From a virus (taxonomy: Duplodnaviria > Heunggongvirae > Uroviricota > Caudoviricetes), in the IMG/VR virus record IMGVR_UViG_2703718827_000001, positions 1 through 32,372 of that record: a DNA stretch of 32,372 nucleotides. One strand, given 5' to 3'. The notes under the pieces were generated by a model. The model searched no databases and was not told the origin of the DNA. It saw nothing but the letters and a program-made list of their open reading frames with translations. The translations under genes were made by a program, and so were the position numbers. The first letter of the stretch is position 1, and every line of letters starts with the position of its first letter. Below are positions 25,723 through 32,372 of the stretch, in pieces.

Positions 25723-26340
25723 TCAGCAAATAATATCTTCCTGCTGCGGCGCTGCCGGCAGCGGCATCCAGTGGGTTGGGCTCCATGATGCTCCTGGTAT
25801 AATCCAGCCATCTATATCTGCATCCGGATGCCCAGGGCAATTTGTTGCCCACTTCATTGCATAGCCGCCAGGAGCTGATTGCCATGGCGCAGCAACTATC
25901 ACACCTGTTGATGGGCTTGGCATCCGCTTACTGCAAGCCACCCAACCGTCTGTCAACTCATCACTATTACTTACAGGTTCGGCCTGAAGCATGGCGGCGC
26001 GATAGGCGTTCCAGCCGACAGCTTTTCCGTGTTCAAACGCGCTGTCAAAGTCATCATCAATTTCCATCGCAGCGGGCACAGATACCGGCGCTGGCGGGGC
26101 GGTGTAAAGCGGCGTTACTTCTCGCAGCGGGTCGGCATAAGCATTGCCACTATCGAAGCTGACGTTGTTTTTTGCCCCGCCTCCTGACAGCAACCACGCC
26201 ACCGGCTCCGCTTCGAGCGATGCCAGCGCTATACGCGCCATCTCTTTGACAACGTCACAGTTTTTATTTCCTTCGCAATCATCCATCAAAAGCCAATCGT
26301 CATTGATTATTTCTTTAATCTTATCCCGTGAAAGTTCCAT
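25723..26340 (-). CDS. DUF551-domain protein
   Basis: 205 aa; C-terminal Trp-rich region (DGWVACSKRMP...THWMPLP) typical of DUF551 proteins common in lambdoid early regions. Confidence 0.65.
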   Translation of the reverse strand: MELSRDKIKEIINDDWLLMDDCEGNKNCDVVKEMARIALASLEAEPVAWLLSGGGAKNNVSFDSGNAYADPLREVTPLYTAPPAPVSVPAAMEIDDDFDSAFEHGKAVGWNAYRAAMLQAEPVSNSDELTDGWVACSKRMPSPSTGVIVAAPWQSAPGGYAMKWATNCPGHPDADIDGWIIPGASWSPTHWMPLPAAPQQEDIIC

Positions 26341-26540
26341 TAATTCACCGCCTTAGCTTTACGCTCTGCTTCACTAAAATCCCAGTCAACACGATGCGAT
26401 ATTTCAATTGCCGCCCTAACGGAATGCTCAATCATGATGTCGAGCTTTTGAAGTGTCATGGCCATATTTGGATTTCGAGCCAATATTTCTGCGCGAAGAA
26501 TTTGCCAGTCATTGCATGTTTCAAGTAATGAATTAGCCAT
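26340..26540 (-). CDS. Small hypothetical protein (66 aa)
   Basis: Internal Met start (MANSLLETCNDW...) of the longer track ORF; overlaps neighbours at both ends. Confidence 0.35.
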   Translation of the reverse strand: MANSLLETCNDWQILRAEILARNPNMAMTLQKLDIMIEHSVRAAIEISHRVDWDFSEAERKAKAVN

Positions 26541-26922
26541 TATCTTTACCCCGCGCTCCATATGCAGATAAGCACTCTTCAAATCCAGCCTGATTATCCG
26601 TTTGACCAAAACTGAAGCCATGCTGAAGACCATGACGAAATGCGCTATCTTGCAATTTATCTGCGCTATCGAGCTTCGCTTCCAGTTCAGCGATTCGCTT
26701 CTCTGCGGCTTCCAGCTCATCCAGCAGCGCCAGCACGGTGGCGGGGTTGGCTGCGGCGATAAATGCAGCATCACGCGCTTCGTTTTCACTGAATACCATG
26801 GCTATTTGCTCATGGTTCACGCCGTCAGTGGAGTAAATCTCATCGTCGAACTCAACAGCCCACCGGCATTTCGTCGCCTTCTCCGCTGCTTCACGTAATC
26901 CACGTTTGTCGATGTTGCTCAT
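26533..26922 (-). CDS. ead/Ea22-like protein
   Basis: 129 aa; central coiled-coil motif ATVLALLDELEAAEKRIAELEAKL and overall pattern typical of Ea22-like early proteins. Confidence 0.6.
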   Translation of the reverse strand: MSNIDKRGLREAAEKATKCRWAVEFDDEIYSTDGVNHEQIAMVFSENEARDAAFIAAANPATVLALLDELEAAEKRIAELEAKLDSADKLQDSAFRHGLQHGFSFGQTDNQAGFEECLSAYGARGKDNG

Positions 26923-27116
26923 TGGGCGGCCTCCTCCATGGCTGGGTCTGCTGGTAAAGTCATGTGCGGCACTTCAATCAGTTCTGCCCGAGCATCAGCC
27001 GTGTTAAGCGCCATTAATGCGACGATCCGCTTCTGCTCAGCATCCATTCGTAACGCTACTGTCTTGCCGTTCATATTGAAGAACACCGCAACGTTTTTGA
27101 TATCTTCGATTTTCAT
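26919..27116 (-). CDS. Small hypothetical protein (65 aa)
   Basis: Internal Met start (MKIEDIKNVAVFF...) of the track ORF; coupled to neighbours by 4 nt overlaps. Confidence 0.4.
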   Translation of the reverse strand: MKIEDIKNVAVFFNMNGKTVALRMDAEQKRIVALMALNTADARAELIEVPHMTLPADPAMEEAAQ

Positions 27117-27457
27117 ACCCCTACCCTCCCCCAAACCATCAATACCCTTCTCATCGCCGCGCTGTTGCGGCACTCCTGGCAGATCACGTTTGCCTCTGTA
27201 CGCTGCACCAGCTTCGAATTTCCCTTCGGCATAGCCGGGATTGTTTCTGGTGCGTATTTCATGCCGTAATCGGTCAGCCGATAAAGCCGCTGTCCGTGCT
27301 TGCCTTCGAACTCGATCAGGCCGTCTGCAAACAACGTACTTAACGGGCCGGAAATCTTTTTGGTGGTCATGCCGATCATGCTGGCAATACGAGCACTGTT
27401 CAGGCCCGGGTTGTTACGCAGGGCTGCAAGAATCTGCCCGCGGATTGTTATGGTCAT
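27113..27457 (-). CDS. Winged-helix DNA-binding protein
   Basis: 114 aa; N-terminal wHTH-like region (QILAALRNNPGLNSARIASMIGMTTKKISGPLSTLFADGLIE); C-terminal Cys pair. Confidence 0.5.
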   Translation of the reverse strand: MTITIRGQILAALRNNPGLNSARIASMIGMTTKKISGPLSTLFADGLIEFEGKHGQRLYRLTDYGMKYAPETIPAMPKGNSKLVQRTEANVICQECRNSAAMRRVLMVWGRVGV

Positions 27458-28893
27458 CAGAATCCCCCTTTCTTTTTCGGCTGCTGCTCACGCCCGCGGC
27501 GTTCTGCGGCGGCGGCCTGCTGGTCTGTGTCGTAAATTGCCCCGTTGATCTGATTGCAATAAACCGTTCCGGTACTGCCGTGGCGATTGAGTCGCAGGAT
27601 TAACTCGGTTTCTCCCGGCGGCACGCTGTCATCGAAAGCACCTTCCCGGTGGATACCAACCCAGTAGTCGCAGTCCTGCTCAATCTGTCCTGTGTCGCGG
27701 GAATCGCTCGGTAACGGGCGTTTATTCACTCGCTTCTCCAGTTCGCGGTTGAGCTGGGTCAGCAGCACGACGACGCAGCCAAGCTCTTTAGCGAGGTTCT
27801 TCAACCCTTTGGTGATCATCCCGTAGGCAAGGTCATTACGGTCGGCTTTTTCGGCGGTCATCAGAGTCAGGTAGTCAACCAAAATCATTCCTACGCAGCC
27901 CTTCTCGCGCTTGATTCGGCGGCTTTCGCTAACGATGTGCGCCAGTGACAGGCCAGGAGTATCGTCGATGTACAGCATGTCGATTTCACTCAATCGCCCG
28001 GCGGTGGCGATCGCCTTCTTAAAGTCGCCGTCGTAATCGCCCTGGTACTGGTCATCGGCGTCATCCGTGGCTGGCATGTAAAAAATGCTCGGGTTAACTC
28101 CAGACTTCTGACCAACCAGTTTTTCGAGGATCTGGTCGCCCGGCATTTCGAGGCTGAACATCAGCGCTGGCTTTTTCTCACGAACCGCGCAGTTGATCGC
28201 CATCTGACCGTACAGGGTTGTCTTGCCCATCTTTGGCCTTGCGCCAATCACGAACAGAGAGCCTTTAACCAGACCTTTCGGCGCCAGCAGCCGGTCGAGT
28301 GACGGGATGCCGGTGCTCATGCCGCGCTGTTCGCCTGAAGGGTCAAAGCGTTTCTCCAGATCTGCTACCCAGTCATCCATAACCTCGCCGAACGACCGCA
28401 ACCCACGGCGACTACCGGTTTTTGAATGGTCTGCGAGCTGGGTGAAAATACCCTGAATGGCCTCGTACTTCTGCGTGGCGCTCATGCCATTGCGGGAATA
28501 CAGCAGCTCAGTAGCTTCGGTCAGGCGGCTGATACCGTAGCGCTCCATTGCGGCTTCCCGGACTGACGCAGCGTATGCCACGATGTTTGCAGCGCTGGGA
28601 GTGTTCTTGGCGATCTCCGCCAGGTAAGCAAAGCCACCTACCTGCTCCGCGAGCCCTTTGCCTTCGAGCGCGTCGAACAATGTCAGACCATCGACTGGCT
28701 TGTTGTCGCGGAACATCTGGCGCATCTCGGCAAAGATCAGCTGGTGAGGTCGGCTGTAGAACGATTCAGGCTTGAGCATCGCCAGAACCTTCTGGACTCG
28801 CTCGCTGTTGTCATCATCCAGCAGCAGGCCACCGATAACGCTCTGCTCTGCTTCGAGGTTTTGTGGTACAGCCATGAAATCAGCGGTCATCAC
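27457..28893 (-). CDS. dnaB: Replicative DNA helicase (DnaB family)
   Basis: 478 aa; DnaB N-terminal domain (QNLEAEQSVIGGLLLD), Walker A (GARPKMGKTT) and the conserved RecA-like core. Confidence 0.9.
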   Translation of the reverse strand: MMTADFMAVPQNLEAEQSVIGGLLLDDDNSERVQKVLAMLKPESFYSRPHQLIFAEMRQMFRDNKPVDGLTLFDALEGKGLAEQVGGFAYLAEIAKNTPSAANIVAYAASVREAAMERYGISRLTEATELLYSRNGMSATQKYEAIQGIFTQLADHSKTGSRRGLRSFGEVMDDWVADLEKRFDPSGEQRGMSTGIPSLDRLLAPKGLVKGSLFVIGARPKMGKTTLYGQMAINCAVREKKPALMFSLEMPGDQILEKLVGQKSGVNPSIFYMPATDDADDQYQGDYDGDFKKAIATAGRLSEIDMLYIDDTPGLSLAHIVSESRRIKREKGCVGMILVDYLTLMTAEKADRNDLAYGMITKGLKNLAKELGCVVVLLTQLNRELEKRVNKRPLPSDSRDTGQIEQDCDYWVGIHREGAFDDSVPPGETELILRLNRHGSTGTVYCNQINGAIYDTDQQAAAAERRGREQQPKKKGGF

Positions 28894-29785
28894 GATCCCC
28901 CTCGCGCACTTCGATGTAGAGCTTTTCGGTCAGGAACTTATCGAATTTCATGCGGCGCCAGGTCTTCCCAGACTTCTGGTCTGGTCGGTCTTCAAGCATC
29001 CAGCGGCAGTTCTGAGCGATGTAACGCAGATAGCTTCTGAAACCGTCCATATCCATCGGCTTGCCGTCCAGGTTGCGGGCAATCTTATTAGCCTTACCCC
29101 AGAATGTGCGGATCAGATTGCGTCGCTCATCAGTGAGGCATCTCCATCCCCGTGCTTCAGGCAGTTCGTCTTTCAGGCATTGCCATACTTCATCGCATGA
29201 CAAACGAGACTTTTTCTCTTCAGCGGGTTTCTGGTCATTTGCGACATACTTACTACCGTTAGGTAGTAAGTTATTTAATATATTGTTATCTGTGGACACT
29301 GGCTGGACATCGGCTGGACACTCCACCTCCGCAGGCATTGGTACGACTATGTTTGGGCTGGACGCTGGCTGGACATCTGCTGGACAAAAATTTGACTGAT
29401 ATTCGTCATATTTGACCACTTTTAGAACAGTAAAACGGTTGTTCGATTTGGTGGTGATCATGCCCAGATTCTGGAATTTACGGAGAAGGGATTTAACGCG
29501 ATCAGCGGTCAAACCCGTTTCCATTGCCAGTGTGTTTCGCCCGGTGATGAACTCTCCGCGCTCGCAGATCACATCGCCAACATCAGTAGATACCAGTGTC
29601 TGTTCGTGATTAGCACGCAGGAGCATGTGAACCCATAAATGAGCCGCCTCAGCGTCCTTGTAGAACGGCACATCCATAATTTTACGGTGCAGCAAGGCAA
29701 ACCCCTTACCGTCATTCGTGCGCGGTTTCTGGAGCCTTCTGGCCTCTCTGGCTTCGGCTAAATTGGATACGTTACCCACGGCCAC
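28880..29785 (-). CDS. Replication initiator (lambda O-like function) with internal origin repeats
   Basis: 301 aa; overlaps the helicase gene start by 14 nt; N-terminal HTH-like region; repeated peptide CPADVQP encoded by DNA iterons; position between the cII-like gene and the helicase. Confidence 0.65.
   Translation of the reverse strand: MAVGNVSNLAEAREARRLQKPRTNDGKGFALLHRKIMDVPFYKDAEAAHLWVHMLLRANHEQTLVSTDVGDVICERGEFITGRNTLAMETGLTADRVKSLLRKFQNLGMITTKSNNRFTVLKVVKYDEYQSNFCPADVQPASSPNIVVPMPAEVECPADVQPVSTDNNILNNLLPNGSKYVANDQKPAEEKKSRLSCDEVWQCLKDELPEARGWRCLTDERRNLIRTFWGKANKIARNLDGKPMDMDGFRSYLRYIAQNCRWMLEDRPDQKSGKTWRRMKFDKFLTEKLYIEVREGDRDDR
29290..29395. repeat. Iteron array (about 6 direct repeats of GGCTGGACA at 11-12 bp spacing) plus adjacent AT-rich tract: candidate origin of replication
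   Basis: Direct repeats visible in the sequence inside the initiator ORF, followed by an A/T-rich segment (CAAAAATTTGACTGATATTCGTCATATTTGACCACTTTTAG). Confidence 0.7.
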
Positions 29786-30011
29786 TCTCCTTACGTTTCA
29801 GTTCTTCCAGGATGGCGCGCATCTTCTCTGCCACAATCGGGTTAACCGAGCGGATGAAGCGGTCGCGGGTTATGTTTTTATGTACAGAGGTATGGTAATA
29901 GCGTGGATTTTTTGCCATTATTCCTCCTGCAATGAGTGCACACGATTTGCATCTGAAGGCCAGTTCTGTTCGCGCAGACTGGCTTTCGCCATTTTTGAAA
30001 CTTCCCATCAC
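29772..30011 (-). CDS. Small hypothetical early protein (79 aa)
   Basis: ORF coupled by overlaps to the cII-like gene upstream and the initiator downstream; contains CKSC. Confidence 0.4.
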   Translation of the reverse strand: MMGSFKNGESQSARTELAFRCKSCALIAGGIMAKNPRYYHTSVHKNITRDRFIRSVNPIVAEKMRAILEELKRKESGRG

Positions 30012-30550
30012 ATAACCCCCAACATCGAAGTGACCATAGCCATCAGCGGCGCGGTCAGATCCGGGTCGACACGGAACATCTCTACAATCCCCTCACTGAG
30101 TTCCTTGAGCTTCTGGTGACGCGGGGCGTTCATCGCAACGGCCACTTTCGCCTCGCTCGTTTCTTTCTCAAGTCGAGCTAAGCGGGACATAAAACTGTCC
30201 TCTGGAAGAAGTCGATGGCGATACTCCAGCGGCAAAACGGCCATGATTGCGGGCGTCAGCTGGCGCACGTTCTCGCGGTACTGCTCAGAGTCGAAACGGT
30301 TATCCAGAAAGCGAAAAAGTTTCTGGCGCGCCCTGCTGATGTCTTCCGGAAAGCTGATGGCGGTCCCGCCCTGCTCCCGGTATTCGTTGATGATCAGCGC
30401 CGAAACGACGTCCTGATTGTCCAGCGCCGACGACCATGCCCTGACCGCATCGCGGATCTTTTCGTGGTCTGGCGCCGCCTTAGGTTGAGCGCGGTTTATC
30501 ATCGCTCCCGGGTGTATTCCGGTATTGTGTTGATACGCAAGTGAATGCAT
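30008..30550 (-). CDS. YdaT-like / CII-type regulator
   Basis: Start at the internal Met (MHSLAYQ...); segment EYREQGG...LTPAIMAVLPLEYRHRL resembles Rac YdaT (EYLRQGG...LIPAILAILPRELRHRL); located directly downstream of the cro-like gene. Confidence 0.55.
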   Translation of the reverse strand: MHSLAYQHNTGIHPGAMINRAQPKAAPDHEKIRDAVRAWSSALDNQDVVSALIINEYREQGGTAISFPEDISRARQKLFRFLDNRFDSEQYRENVRQLTPAIMAVLPLEYRHRLLPEDSFMSRLARLEKETSEAKVAVAMNAPRHQKLKELSEGIVEMFRVDPDLTAPLMAMVTSMLGVM

Positions 30551-30578
30551 TGCTTTCCCTTCGTGGTTAGGGCCGCCG

Positions 30579-30806
30579 TTAAGCGGCTTTTGGTTTACTG
30601 ATTTCAAGGATCTGGTTCTCGGTAAACTGACCACCAGATGCAGCTGCGATTTTGGACGCATAACCTGTTTCGCCGGTGTAATCGGTACGCGGCAGGCAAC
30701 CGCTGTTAATCCACTTGTAGATAGCGCGGGGAGTGCGCCCGCAAGCCTTCGCCACCACCGGTACACGGATTTGCTTGATGATGTCGCCAAGGTTCTTAGG
30801 TTGCAT
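30579..30806 (-). CDS. cro: Cro-like repressor (YdaS-type HTH)
   Basis: 75 aa; HTH (VAKACGRTPRAIYKWINSG); GAGGG Shine-Dalgarno; divergent from the cI-like gene across an operator-containing spacer. Confidence 0.7.
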   Translation of the reverse strand: MQPKNLGDIIKQIRVPVVAKACGRTPRAIYKWINSGCLPRTDYTGETGYASKIAAASGGQFTENQILEISKPKAA

Positions 30807-30895
30807 TTGTTAACCCTCAAATTGAACTGTAAGTACATATTATGTCGGAACTGATAGTTCACGCAAGTGATATTATGATTGAACCTATGGTTCAA
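30807..30895. promoter_or_regulatory. Divergent immunity control region: PR-like promoter and three operator-type palindromes
   Basis: Palindromes GAACTGTAAGTAC (about 30824..30836), GAACTGATAGTTC (about 30848..30860, perfect) and TTGAACCTATGGTTCAA (about 30879..30895). Minus-strand promoter TTGCGT-N16-CATAAT with the perfect palindrome in its spacer. Confidence 0.6.
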
Positions 30896-31597
30896 GAAGA
30901 AAAAGCGCGTAAAGAGTTTTCCCAACGGCTAGCGCTGGCCTGTGATAAAGCTGGTTTACCTGCTCATGGACGTCAGGCTGAAATAGCCAAACGAATGAAG
31001 CTCACGCCTAAAGCGGTAAGCAAGTGGTTCAATGGGGAGGCTATTCCAAGACGTGGGAAGCTGCAGGAATTGGCGGCTATAATTGGCACATCCTCGTCTT
31101 TCCTGTTGGGGGACAGCGCTGCTGATGGCATATCTGAAGGGCATATGGCGATGAGGGATGATTCTTTCCGTGTAGACGTTTTTGACATTCAGGCAAGTGC
31201 TGGGCAGGGAGTTCTCGTGCGAGATGAATTCATTGAAACCATCAGATCCATTGAGTATTCAACCGAAGAGGCTCGCGCCGTATTTGGTGGGCGCCCAGCT
31301 GACCACATTAAAATGATTGCCGTGAATGGCGATTCGATGTCTGGCACGTTCGAGCCTCGAGACCAGATCTTCGTCGACGTCAGCATCGACTGCTTTGACG
31401 GTGACGGCATATATATTTTCGTTCTGGACAATGATCTCTACATTAAGCGCCTTCAAAAGCAGCACAAAAAATTAGCTGTGATTTCAGACAATAAAAAATA
31501 TGAAACCTGGTACATCGAAGATGGTGATTTTTCTTCTCTCCGTATATGCGCGAAAGTGCTGGTAAGCCAGTCAAGGGCATACAGATTTCATAGCTGA
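30842..31597 (+). CDS. cI: CI-like phage repressor with C-terminal S24 (LexA-type) autopeptidase domain
   Basis: N-terminal HTH (RQAEIAKRMKLTPKAVSKWFNG); C-terminal S24 signature with Ser (VNGDSMSGTF) and Lys (LYIKRL). True start may be 30875 or 30887, because the first ATG overlaps the PR-like -10 element. Confidence 0.85.
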   Translation: MSELIVHASDIMIEPMVQEEKARKEFSQRLALACDKAGLPAHGRQAEIAKRMKLTPKAVSKWFNGEAIPRRGKLQELAAIIGTSSSFLLGDSAADGISEGHMAMRDDSFRVDVFDIQASAGQGVLVRDEFIETIRSIEYSTEEARAVFGGRPADHIKMIAVNGDSMSGTFEPRDQIFVDVSIDCFDGDGIYIFVLDNDLYIKRLQKQHKKLAVISDNKKYETWYIEDGDFSSLRICAKVLVSQSRAYRFHS

Positions 31598-31608: not shown

Positions 31609-32196
31609 ATGGAAGCAAATAAGGTTACAGAGCTGAGTGATGGCAGCGTCTTGTACGAGCTTGGTGATCACCTCATTACCTGCAAATTAAGCCACGATAA
31701 ACGTTGGCAGCTAGGTGCTTTCAAACGTGATGAAAGTAATATCAGAGATGACACTCTGGCGGTTTTGAAGAATGAAAAATTCATGTTTATGGTTAAGCTC
31801 GGCGGGCAGCTTTCTCCTAAGCCTCAATGCATAGCTGTTAACGGGCGATTTTTATTTTCTGTCCATACCGGCAAAGACAACAACATGGCTGCAGCCATAG
31901 TCATGGATAACACCGGGAAAGAGTTATTCAAGATAGAAACTTCCACTCACCTCATCAGTTCGGCCATATCTGAATTTGGCTGCTACATCGCCCTATCGTT
32001 TGCCGGTAGCAAAAATAAAGATGATTTTTACGCGCACCGGCTTGAGGTCATAAACATTGATACCGCAGAGGTGTTGATGTCCGTTATCAAAACAGACTTC
32101 CTTCGATACGCTGAACTTTCAGTTGTTGAGCCAGACGGCGGACTTTTCGCAACTTTCAATGGTCGCACAAGACTAGTAGATGTGACGAACCTCTAA
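31609..32196 (+). CDS. Hypothetical protein co-transcribed with cI (rex-position cargo gene)
   Basis: 195 aa ORF starting 12 nt after the repressor stop on the same strand; no recognisable motif; AT-rich; lies between operator-bearing promoters. Confidence 0.6.
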   Translation: MEANKVTELSDGSVLYELGDHLITCKLSHDKRWQLGAFKRDESNIRDDTLAVLKNEKFMFMVKLGGQLSPKPQCIAVNGRFLFSVHTGKDNNMAAAIVMDNTGKELFKIETSTHLISSAISEFGCYIALSFAGSKNKDDFYAHRLEVINIDTAEVLMSVIKTDFLRYAELSVVEPDGGLFATFNGRTRLVDVTNL

Positions 32197-32325
32197 AATA
32201 TCCAATCCGCACCCTCCTCCAGGCATTCCCCACAAAAAATTCTAAAAATTTTTTCTCTTTAAAGTTCATATACATACTTGCATATGAACTTTCCATTCAC
32301 TTTAAATGTACTTTTGGTACTTTAC

Positions 32326-32353
32326 TTGAATGAACTATTGGTACATTATCAAC
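32326..32353 (+). promoter_or_regulatory. Candidate PL/OL-like promoter-operator
   Basis: TTGAAT-N16-TATCAA with operator-like GAACTATTGGTAC in the spacer, mirroring the PR-like promoter; nearby GTACTTTTGGTAC repeat. Confidence 0.35.
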
Positions 32354-32372
32354 CCATCGAAACGAAACATCG

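Follow-up and report, generated by a model that had tools for sequence, protein, structure and literature searches.

A predicted HK022-type OL/PL region with a candidate upstream terminator at the right end of a lambdoid phage sequence

In lambda, the repressor operon cI-rexA-rexB is followed by the terminator tIMM, which lies ahead of OL/PL. The closest described system to the locus studied here is that of HK022, where pL is annotated as TTTACA-N17-CATCAT. HK022 CI dimers act with a cooperativity factor of about 2000 (PMC7498355). In vivo the same repressor joins OL to OR in a loop, having bound both cooperatively, and for 'the 53 bp between OL2 and OL3' the paper cites DNase I sensitivity of a loop-like kind that CI induces (PMC8053113). 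Native HK022 PL is used in vitro by E. coli sigma-70 holoenzyme, which made the putL RNA employed for cryo-EM, and the numbering of that RNA (A3GACG7) fixes +1 as the A of CCCATAGACG, 7 nt after CATCAT (PMC9378689).

We analysed one 32,372-nt stretch of a tailed-phage genome, positions 1 to 32,372 of IMG/VR record IMGVR_UViG_2703718827_000001, which is referred to as the window throughout. Its right end carries a repressor gene and one further gene, followed by 176 bp of non-coding DNA (66% A+T) that run to the last nucleotide. The features of this region are listed below; the promoters, start site, operators and terminator among them are predictions.

30579-30806, minus strand: cro.
Between cro and cI: control region of 72 bp.
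30823-30837: OR1, TGAACTGTAAGTACA.
30847-30861: OR2, GGAACTGATAGTTCA.
30880-30894: OR3, TGAACCTATGGTTCA.
Within 30823-30894, minus strand: PR, TTGCGT-N16-CATAAT.
30887-31597, plus strand: cI, repressor of the HK022 type with a LexA-like C-terminal domain, matching PHROG 4 (transcriptional repressor).
31609-32196, plus strand: orf195, a cargo gene of 195 codons between cI and OL.
32254-32268: distal operator-like half-site, TCTCTTTAAAGTTCA, with a perfect right half-site; measured between centres, it is 53 bp away from OL2.
32261-32292, plus strand: conserved hairpin, candidate terminator of the cI-orf195 transcript, whose 3' arm overlaps OL3.
32285-32299: OL3, TGAACTTTCCATTCA, matching 9/10 half-site positions and starting 22 bp upstream of the OL2 start.
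32307-32321: OL2, TGTACTTTTGGTACT, adjoining the -35 hexamer; homologous to the annotated oL2 of HK022/HK75 and also recovered as a repeat.
32321-32326, plus strand: PL -35 hexamer, TTTACT, aligned with the annotated HK022/HK75 pL -35 TTTACA.
32331-32345: OL1, TGAACTATTGGTACA, in the PL spacer with a 2-nt overlap with the -10 hexamer; homologous to the annotated oL1.
32344-32349, plus strand: PL -10 hexamer, CATTAT, N17 from the -35 hexamer and aligned with the HK022 pL -10 CATCAT.
32356-32372, plus strand: predicted PL start at A32356, with +1 to +17 of a leader that the window end cuts short.

The cI reading frame opens at 30842, with ATG 30887 as its likely start. The encoded repressor shares 59% identity over 233 amino acids with CI of HK75 and HK022, and only one residue separates the recognition helix / helix-turn-helix segment of window CI (TPKAVSKWFNGE) from the HK022-type segment (TPKAISKWFNGE). 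The cro product is 51% identical to HK75 Cro. Because these similarities come together with shared operator spacings, we assign the right end of the window to an HK022-type immunity region, of which 32254-32372 would form the OL/PL part; cI, cro, the six operators and both promoters are all intact in sequence. The gene orf195 matched no Pfam, PADLOC or PHROG family. It occupies the slot between cI and OL that rexAB fills in lambda, and relatives differ widely in this interval, with OL lying anywhere from 118 to 2396 bp past the cI stop. In the window, which unlike HK022 carries the 195-aa cargo gene, OL and OR are about 1.46 kb apart, compared with about 0.7 kb in HK022. For annotation purposes, the assignment fixes the right boundary of the immunity region, identifies six operators, PR, PL and a probable PRM, marks orf195 as a cargo gene in the cI-OL slot, and places the cut end of the window 17 nt into the predicted PL transcript.

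Homology searches tied the non-coding stretch directly to the described OL/PL regions. Using a word size of 11, blastn aligned window positions 32285-32360 with HK022, HK75 and O276 at 77.6% identity over 76 nt (E = 2e-7), and the match falls exactly on the annotated oL3, oL2, pL and oL1. Megablast against phage genomes gave no match reaching the right edge of the window, which only the word-11 search did, and an exact 54-nt search of viral contigs gave no match. Temperate phages of Citrobacter and Klebsiella match the window OL/PL at 76-81% over 105 nt. The same orf195-OL segment is present in seven complete E. coli genomes at 90-99.9% identity, and a metagenome scan returned two contigs, L157 and L158, that are 100% identical to the window here (L157 over 997 nt to the left and the 145 nt up to the window end, L158 over the 145 nt). 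More widely, the cassette of OL2, -35, OL1 and -10 hardly varies across more than 100 viral contigs and is also found in Pseudomonas, Acinetobacter, Photorhabdus and Marinomonas loci; in some such phages CI is only 54-64% identical overall, with a nearly identical N-terminal domain. This spread may interest students of immunity groups and mosaicism, and no new mechanism is implied by it. Judged by sequence homology, the element is of an ordinary, already understood kind, a homologue of the HK022 region; DNA homology, operator set, cognate repressor gene and promoter hexamers are all found within the window, and repressor binding and promoter activity are predicted from these.

The preliminary description of this DNA, made from the sequence alone, had noticed one sequence at the right edge related to the operator half-sites upstream of cro. 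That relationship is borne out, and the region holds three predicted OL sites and a half-site where one had been proposed. The operators are 15 bp long with the pattern TGAAC-N5-GT(T/A)CA, which is common to OL and OR in the window, in HK022 and in the OL/PL regions of HK75 and O276 (about 78% DNA identity over the 76 nt). At no more than one mismatch, TGAACNNNNNGTWCA gave 11 strand-hits in the window where 2.65 were expected, and none of 100 shuffles reached 11. Five of the six distinct sites found at this threshold fall in two clusters that flank the cI operon, at 30823-30894 and 32285-32345; OL2, the sixth operator, surfaces at two mismatches. OL1 matches the operator pattern with 0 mismatches and is 81% identical to OR1. 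OL2 and OL1 are spaced 24 bp apart and the OR sites 24 and 33 bp, exactly as in HK75, and HK022 has the same 24-bp OL2-OL1 interval, the same OR layout and the same order of elements (OL3, OL2, -35, OL1, -10), followed by a CCCAT start region.

To examine the arrangement across relatives, two comparative sets were used. The first had been picked by its OL2/-35 pattern, so it is uninformative on conservation of the -35 hexamer. The second consists of 80 viral loci that were gathered through the cI protein alone, independently of OL sequence. An operator pair was found downstream of cI in 77 of these 80 loci, and when the loci were rescanned every selected pair was 24 bp apart. The position of OL3 is also recurrent: a site scoring 9/10 lies at offset 22 from OL2 in 39 of the cI-anchored loci, oL3 is annotated at the equivalent position in the HK75 record, and in Acinetobacter relatives the third operator is complete (TGAACAAAAAGTTCA) and lies 21 bp upstream of OL2. 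OL3 of the window is the better palindrome, with 9/10 positions versus 7/10 in HK022. Further upstream, the half-site at 32254-32268 may be an extra CI contact. Its counterpart in HK022 and HK75, TTTCCTTAAAGTTCA, is likewise centred 53 bp from OL2, and we infer that the '53 bp' statement (PMC8053113) refers to this distal site. At no more than two mismatches, no counterpart of the HK022 OFR, a fourth operator downstream of cro, was detected between 28890 and 30822, which is one point of difference from HK022.

Promoter-likeness is by itself at chance level in this AT-rich DNA. The assigned PL agrees with the sigma-70 consensus at 8/12 positions, and promoter-like arrangements scoring 8/12 number 9 in the 176-bp region compared with 7.2 +/- 2.8 in shuffles. 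A generic promoter and terminator scan called neither PL nor the hairpin, and reported no terminator in 32197-32372. We therefore based the assignment of PL on its homology to HK022 PL and on conservation of its hexamers in 70 or more of the cI-anchored relatives. At the -35 position TTTACA occurs in 54 of these loci and TTTACT, the form in the window, in 16 (70 together); at the -10 position CATTAT, again the window form, occurs in 47, CATATT in 17 and CATCAT in 8 (72 together). Thus the predicted PL is TTTACT-N17-CATTAT, firing away from cI, and it differs from HK022 PL in having TTTACT for TTTACA and CATTAT for CATCAT. Three bases never vary in an alignment of 62 relatives (A1): A at -11, T at -7 and the A of the start site (column A110, within CCCATCG). 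The predicted start, A32356, is the homologue of the HK022 +1 A.

A different pair of hexamers had been proposed in the preliminary description, which gave the promoter as TTGAAT-N16-TATCAA. Both hexamers exist (32326-32331 and 32347-32352), each matches the consensus at 4/6 positions, and OL1 occupies the spacer between them. The spacer, however, is 15 nt and not 16, a length that is rarely functional, and TATCAA does not have the near-essential T at -7. Relatives carry ATGAAT, ATATTT, TTGATG and other sequences at the TTGAAT position, whereas TTTAC(A/T)-N17-CAT(T/C/A)(A/T)T is conserved, and the 5' end of the HK022 transcript agrees with a CATCAT hexamer 7 nt upstream of +1. Arrangements scoring 8/12 are found here at chance frequency, which also counts against TTGAAT and TATCAA. 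We consider it extremely unlikely that these hexamers form the promoter, and TTGAAT-TATCAA was rejected because its -35 is not conserved and the T at -7 is absent. The earlier conclusion that a second repressor-controlled promoter fires rightward from this region is upheld by the homology to HK022/HK75 OL-PL, the HK022-like cI and cro, and the continuations seen in identical and near-identical sequences; on the strength of the HK022 homology and the cI-anchored conservation we keep that conclusion and replace the hexamers. This promoter does not, however, mirror PR exactly, as the order of elements is OL2, -35, OL1, -10 at PL and -35, OR2, -10, OR1 at PR.

What the predicted PL transcript would contain beyond its first 17 nt was read from relatives that extend further to the right. 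Past the window, both L157 and L158 read GTCAGTCGAACGGCGCGACAGTAAACCATGCGTCGGACCATAGGCGGGCTCAGGAAGAGCGGCAAT, which is clearly related to HK022 putL; a put-like RNA also follows in E. coli 1218KP (99.9% identical). In the identical contigs the put-like element lies 63-140 nt beyond the window end and has the two-stem put architecture. In an alignment of 13 sequences, 7 of the 19 predicted pairs show compensatory changes, and the two-stem architecture with such changes is shared with HK022 putL and putR. A covariance model built from this alignment scored the continuation at 97 bits and the independent HK022/HK75 putR at 36 bits. The same model, with filters on or off, detected nothing resembling putR on the PR side (best score in the window 7.4 bits, E = 0.33), a further difference from HK022. 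Rfam, searched in E-value mode with the extended 1218KP region, gave no match, and Rfam apparently has no put family. The element also departs from HK022 putL in its position, which is beyond the window and further from the promoter, starting about 75 nt further from the start site where HK022 put begins at +1, and in its stem II base (ACCAUA/UAUGG), with the bulge shifted.

In near-identical E. coli prophages, genes of an early-left operon lie further to the right. The annotated genes there open, in 1218KP and the closest relatives, with one on the opposite strand that encodes a small zinc-binding protein of the ECs_2282 family and takes the position of nun in HK022. In 1218KP it is followed on the plus strand by an Nmad5-family gene, a kil-like division inhibitor, ydaE, recE and recT, and other near-identical E. 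coli prophages carry gamL with bet or recT on the plus strand. The preliminary description had placed the N / early-left genes beyond the window and suggested that the sequence be extended rightward in search of them. What the relatives contain on the same strand, after the opposite-strand first gene, is a set of early-left genes (kil, gam, bet, recET); annotation of the closest relatives shows no N gene downstream, and the identical contigs carry a put-type RNA in place of nutL. This downstream context in identical contigs and near-identical prophages points to PL transcription that would head into an early-left operon, with put RNA and not N as the predicted antitermination device. Among 25 more distant relatives that share this leader, put is present in 13 and a boxA/nut-like sequence, TGCT(C/T)TTTAACAA, in 11, the junction between the two types lying about 50 bp beyond the window end. 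Since about half of the relatives with the same leader are boxA/nut-like in place of put, the downstream antitermination mechanism is mosaic, and for this window it is therefore read from the identical contigs.

That the window ends at +17, with the right flank outside it, bears on a further explanation, in which the region is a relic in a defective prophage and OL/PL is nonfunctional or PL no longer drives a left operon. Left operons of prophages are often decayed or mosaic; L001 has a frameshifted gene, and relatives differ after the leader. Yet cI, cro, the six operators and both promoters show no damage, the OL module is highly conserved in the more than 100 viral contigs, and the identical contigs continue into an intact put element. 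We regard decay of this kind as very unlikely, and return to the reading of the region as a working OL/PL for the question of what lies immediately upstream.

There, the preliminary description had reported an inverted repeat with 9-bp arms, followed by a T-rich stretch, as a candidate operon terminator. The repeat is real and has the N10 loop described; its arms are perfect over 11 bp, AAAGTTCATAT (32261-32271) and ATATGAACTTT (32282-32292). A repeat search returned the same inverted repeat with 14-nt arms at 93% and a 4-nt loop. Positions 32293-32330 are rich in T only in a loose sense (45%), and the immediate tail, TTTCCATTCAC, contains no U-run. As plus-strand RNA the hairpin folds at -11.5 kcal/mol (z = -6.9), and none of 200 shuffles was as good. 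The stem is AT-rich with 2-3 G-C pairs, below the stem criterion of the terminator scan. If the stem is taken to end at C32289 the tail is UUUCCAUU, with 5/8 U, while after the full 11-bp stem it is CCAUUCAC, with 2/8. The conserved hairpin lies directly upstream of the operators and overlaps OL3 in HK022 as well, where the T-tract is TTTTTAT, compared with the poorer TTTCCATT of the window. In HK022, in contigs L049, L086 and L027 and in many other relatives, the hairpin (-12 to -17 kcal/mol) is followed by 5-7 T, which has the appearance of a textbook intrinsic terminator.

Covariation within the stem indicates that pairing is maintained in the enterobacterial relatives. Across the 62 distinct sequences of A1, 83% of stem cells are paired; sliding the partners by 1-3 columns lowers this to 21-45%. 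These are related sequences, chosen as a set for having GTTCA in the left arm, which makes the invariance of that arm partly a product of selection; the GTTCA/TGAAC core of the stem is invariant and hence silent on pairing, so that only the inner pairs are informative. Two inner pairs (24/39 and 25/38) show compensatory double changes: one is UA in 46 sequences, UG in 8, CG in 3 and GC in 1, and the next is AU in 26, UA in 21, GU in 3 and GC in 1. Stem cells contain 15 G.U in the plus sense and 3 A.C, which would be G.U in the minus sense. This asymmetry favours, from sequence, an RNA transcribed in the same direction as cI, although in the window itself the minus-strand RNA of the hairpin folds better than the plus-strand RNA (-15.9 vs -11.5 kcal/mol). 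From its position and conservation, and by analogy with lambda tIMM, the hairpin probably serves as a weak terminator at the end of the cI-orf195 transcript. The terminator proposed at the outset thus gains a hairpin conserved with compensatory changes, against which stand the scan that did not call it and the poor U-tract of the window lineage. Given that weak U-tract, partial termination at best would be expected.

The tail also serves another predicted element. In the window lineage the tail TTTCCATTCA completes the 9/10 operator OL3 and is a poor U-tract. Relatives from Pseudomonas and Acinetobacter have a distinct GC-rich terminator ahead of the operators, which suggests that the general plan is terminator, OL3, OL2, -35, OL1, -10, and that in the enterobacterial group the descending arm of the terminator came to form the left half-site of OL3. 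We rejected as a rule any strict trade-off of OL3 quality against the quality of the U-tract, since relatives such as L049 (TGAACTTTTTTTACA) have both.

The overlap raises the question of whether the palindrome at 32261-32292 acts mainly as DNA, its half-sites together with OL3 providing additional CI contacts for cooperative or looped binding. The RNA hairpin would then be incidental and termination would be achieved otherwise, for example by Rho or by a CI roadblock. Exact half-sites do lie in the arms, GTTCA and TGAAC facing outward at a distance of 21 bp, and the 3' arm supplies one half of OL3. In HK022 and the window alike, 53 bp separate the centres of the distal 15-mer and OL2, a number that matches the DNase I statement; HK022 CI is extremely cooperative, and the U-tract is weak in the window lineage. 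A protein-binding site would not, however, require the inner stem positions outside the half-sites to covary in a way that keeps pairing. Many relatives have a textbook stem with T5-7 at exactly the same place, and the excess of G.U over A.C points to plus-strand RNA. We consider a mainly DNA-level role unlikely, if still deserving of some weight, and prefer the weak terminator. The two roles are not mutually exclusive, and a more speculative possibility, which we hold to be quite unlikely, is dual use of the palindrome: its RNA would terminate the repressor operon, while as DNA its arms, OL3 and the distal half-site would form a fourth CI contact that wraps or loops OL. If this were true, repressor occupancy would be coupled physically to read-through of the maintenance transcript into the lytic left operon, and lineages would tune the arrangement by trading U-tract quality against OL3 quality.

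Taken as a whole, 32254-32372 is very probably an HK022-type lambdoid OL/PL region with a CI-repressed rightward PL, preceded by a hairpin that probably acts as a weak terminator, and we infer the following course of events. In a lysogen, dimers of the phage's own CI would bind cooperatively to the pair OL1 and OL2, sites that flank the -35 hexamer and overlap the -10 hexamer, and would bind OL3 in addition; PL would be shut off by CI bound at OL. OL and the three OR sites 1.46 kb away would probably be bridged by repressor into a DNA loop. Upon inactivation of CI, sigma-70 RNA polymerase would start at about A32356 from TTTACT-N17-CATTAT and transcribe rightward out of the window. The PL transcript would then carry the put-type antiterminator RNA and reach the early-left genes, as judged by the identical and near-identical contigs. 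The hairpin in the cI-orf195 transcript, as a likely weak intrinsic terminator, would keep maintenance transcription from PRM out of the left operon, and its 3' arm and tail would double as OL3.

The differences from HK022 noted above, in cargo gene and OL-OR distance, in OL3 and U-tract quality, in the placing of put and in the elements detected on the PR side, are matters of degree, and a put-type RNA lies downstream in the contigs identical to the window. With lambda the predicted arrangement shares its logic: the repressor and left early operons are codirectional, cargo follows cI, a terminator stands between cargo and OL, three operators overlap PL, and OL and OR form a long-range loop. 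It shares no sequence similarity with lambda. The window operators are 15-mers of other sequence, where those of lambda are 17-mers; the closest relatives use a cis-acting put RNA, where lambda uses N and nut; and in the window the candidate terminator and OL3 physically overlap.

As a separate observation, the placement of OL3 in HK022 depends on the source that is followed. The annotation of HK75 puts it at the proximal site, equivalent to 32285-32299 in the window, whereas the '53 bp' remark fits the distal half-site.

The OL2/-35/OL1/-10 cassette, comprising two of the predicted CI operators and the core elements of PL, the left early promoter, is nearly invariant even in relatives whose CI protein is just 54-57% identical overall (L224-L238, L012, L016, L020, L024, L029 and L011). 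In L224, the one example compared, the N-terminal ~75 residues of CI are close to 90% identical, a match that suggests domain-level mosaicism of the repressor. The same cassette was also present in Pseudomonas, Acinetobacter, Photorhabdus, Marinomonas and Rheinheimera loci. Judged from these sequences, the distribution suggests an operator specificity that is common to many phages and very widespread.

The leader that follows PL is joined to different elements, the first of which lies beyond the window and was seen in contigs identical to it:

L157 1183-1260 and L001 6814-6891, about 63-140 nt past the window end: put-type antiterminator RNA
L001 7027-7449, minus strand: gene of the ECs_2282 family encoding a putative zinc-binding protein, separating put from the early-left genes

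Both stems of this HK022 put-type RNA show compensatory changes, and the RNA starts ~75 nt farther from the PL start than does HK022 putL. A mosaic junction was found after CAGCGGCG, ~50 bp past the position of the window end, in L010, L015, L037, L051, L066, L096 and other relatives, and among relatives that share the PL leader, approximately half have a boxA-like TGCT(C/T)TTTAACAA of the nut type instead of put. Since some relatives carry put and others the nut-type sequence, one OL/PL cassette has been joined to two different antitermination systems. Whereas HK022 has nun beyond put, in L001 this place is held by the inserted ECs_2282-family gene in opposite orientation, which transcription from PL would cross antisense.

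We also searched for the HK022 devices of the PR (right early) operon. No putR-like element was detected downstream of cro (window 26000-30806, minus strand; best score 7.4 bits) using a put covariance model that does recover HK022 putR, and no fourth operator resembling OFR was found downstream of cro. The PR operon of the window seems to be without these devices. Its cII-position gene encodes a YdaT-toxin-domain protein, according to the relatives' annotation.

Three features lie on the cI side of OL:

Window 30851-30879: PRM (cI promoter) candidate, CTGATA-N17-TATGAT, predicted start ~30886-30887
Window 31609-32196, plus strand: orf195, between cI and OL
Window 32234-32256: A-rich box, directly upstream of the hairpin that is the candidate cI-orf195 terminator

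In relatives collected through their CI protein, between 118 and 2396 bp separate the cI end from OL, and this interval is therefore a variable cargo ('moron') slot, occupied by rexAB in lambda and by orf195 in the window. The orf195 product, which belongs to no family in Pfam, PADLOC or PHROG, may have an exclusion or defence function expressed in the lysogen. The A-rich box, conserved in the window and relatives with or without preceding cargo genes, apparently delimits the conserved OL module on its left side; it reads AAAAATAAAT in most relatives and AAAAATTTTTT, a small A/T palindrome, in the window. Lastly, alignment with HK022 places the cI start at the ATG at 30887, which coincides with the predicted PRM start; the cI mRNA would then be leaderless, as it is in lambda. 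Between the relatives' RefSeq annotations, the cI start differs (251 aa or 240 aa versus 236 aa).
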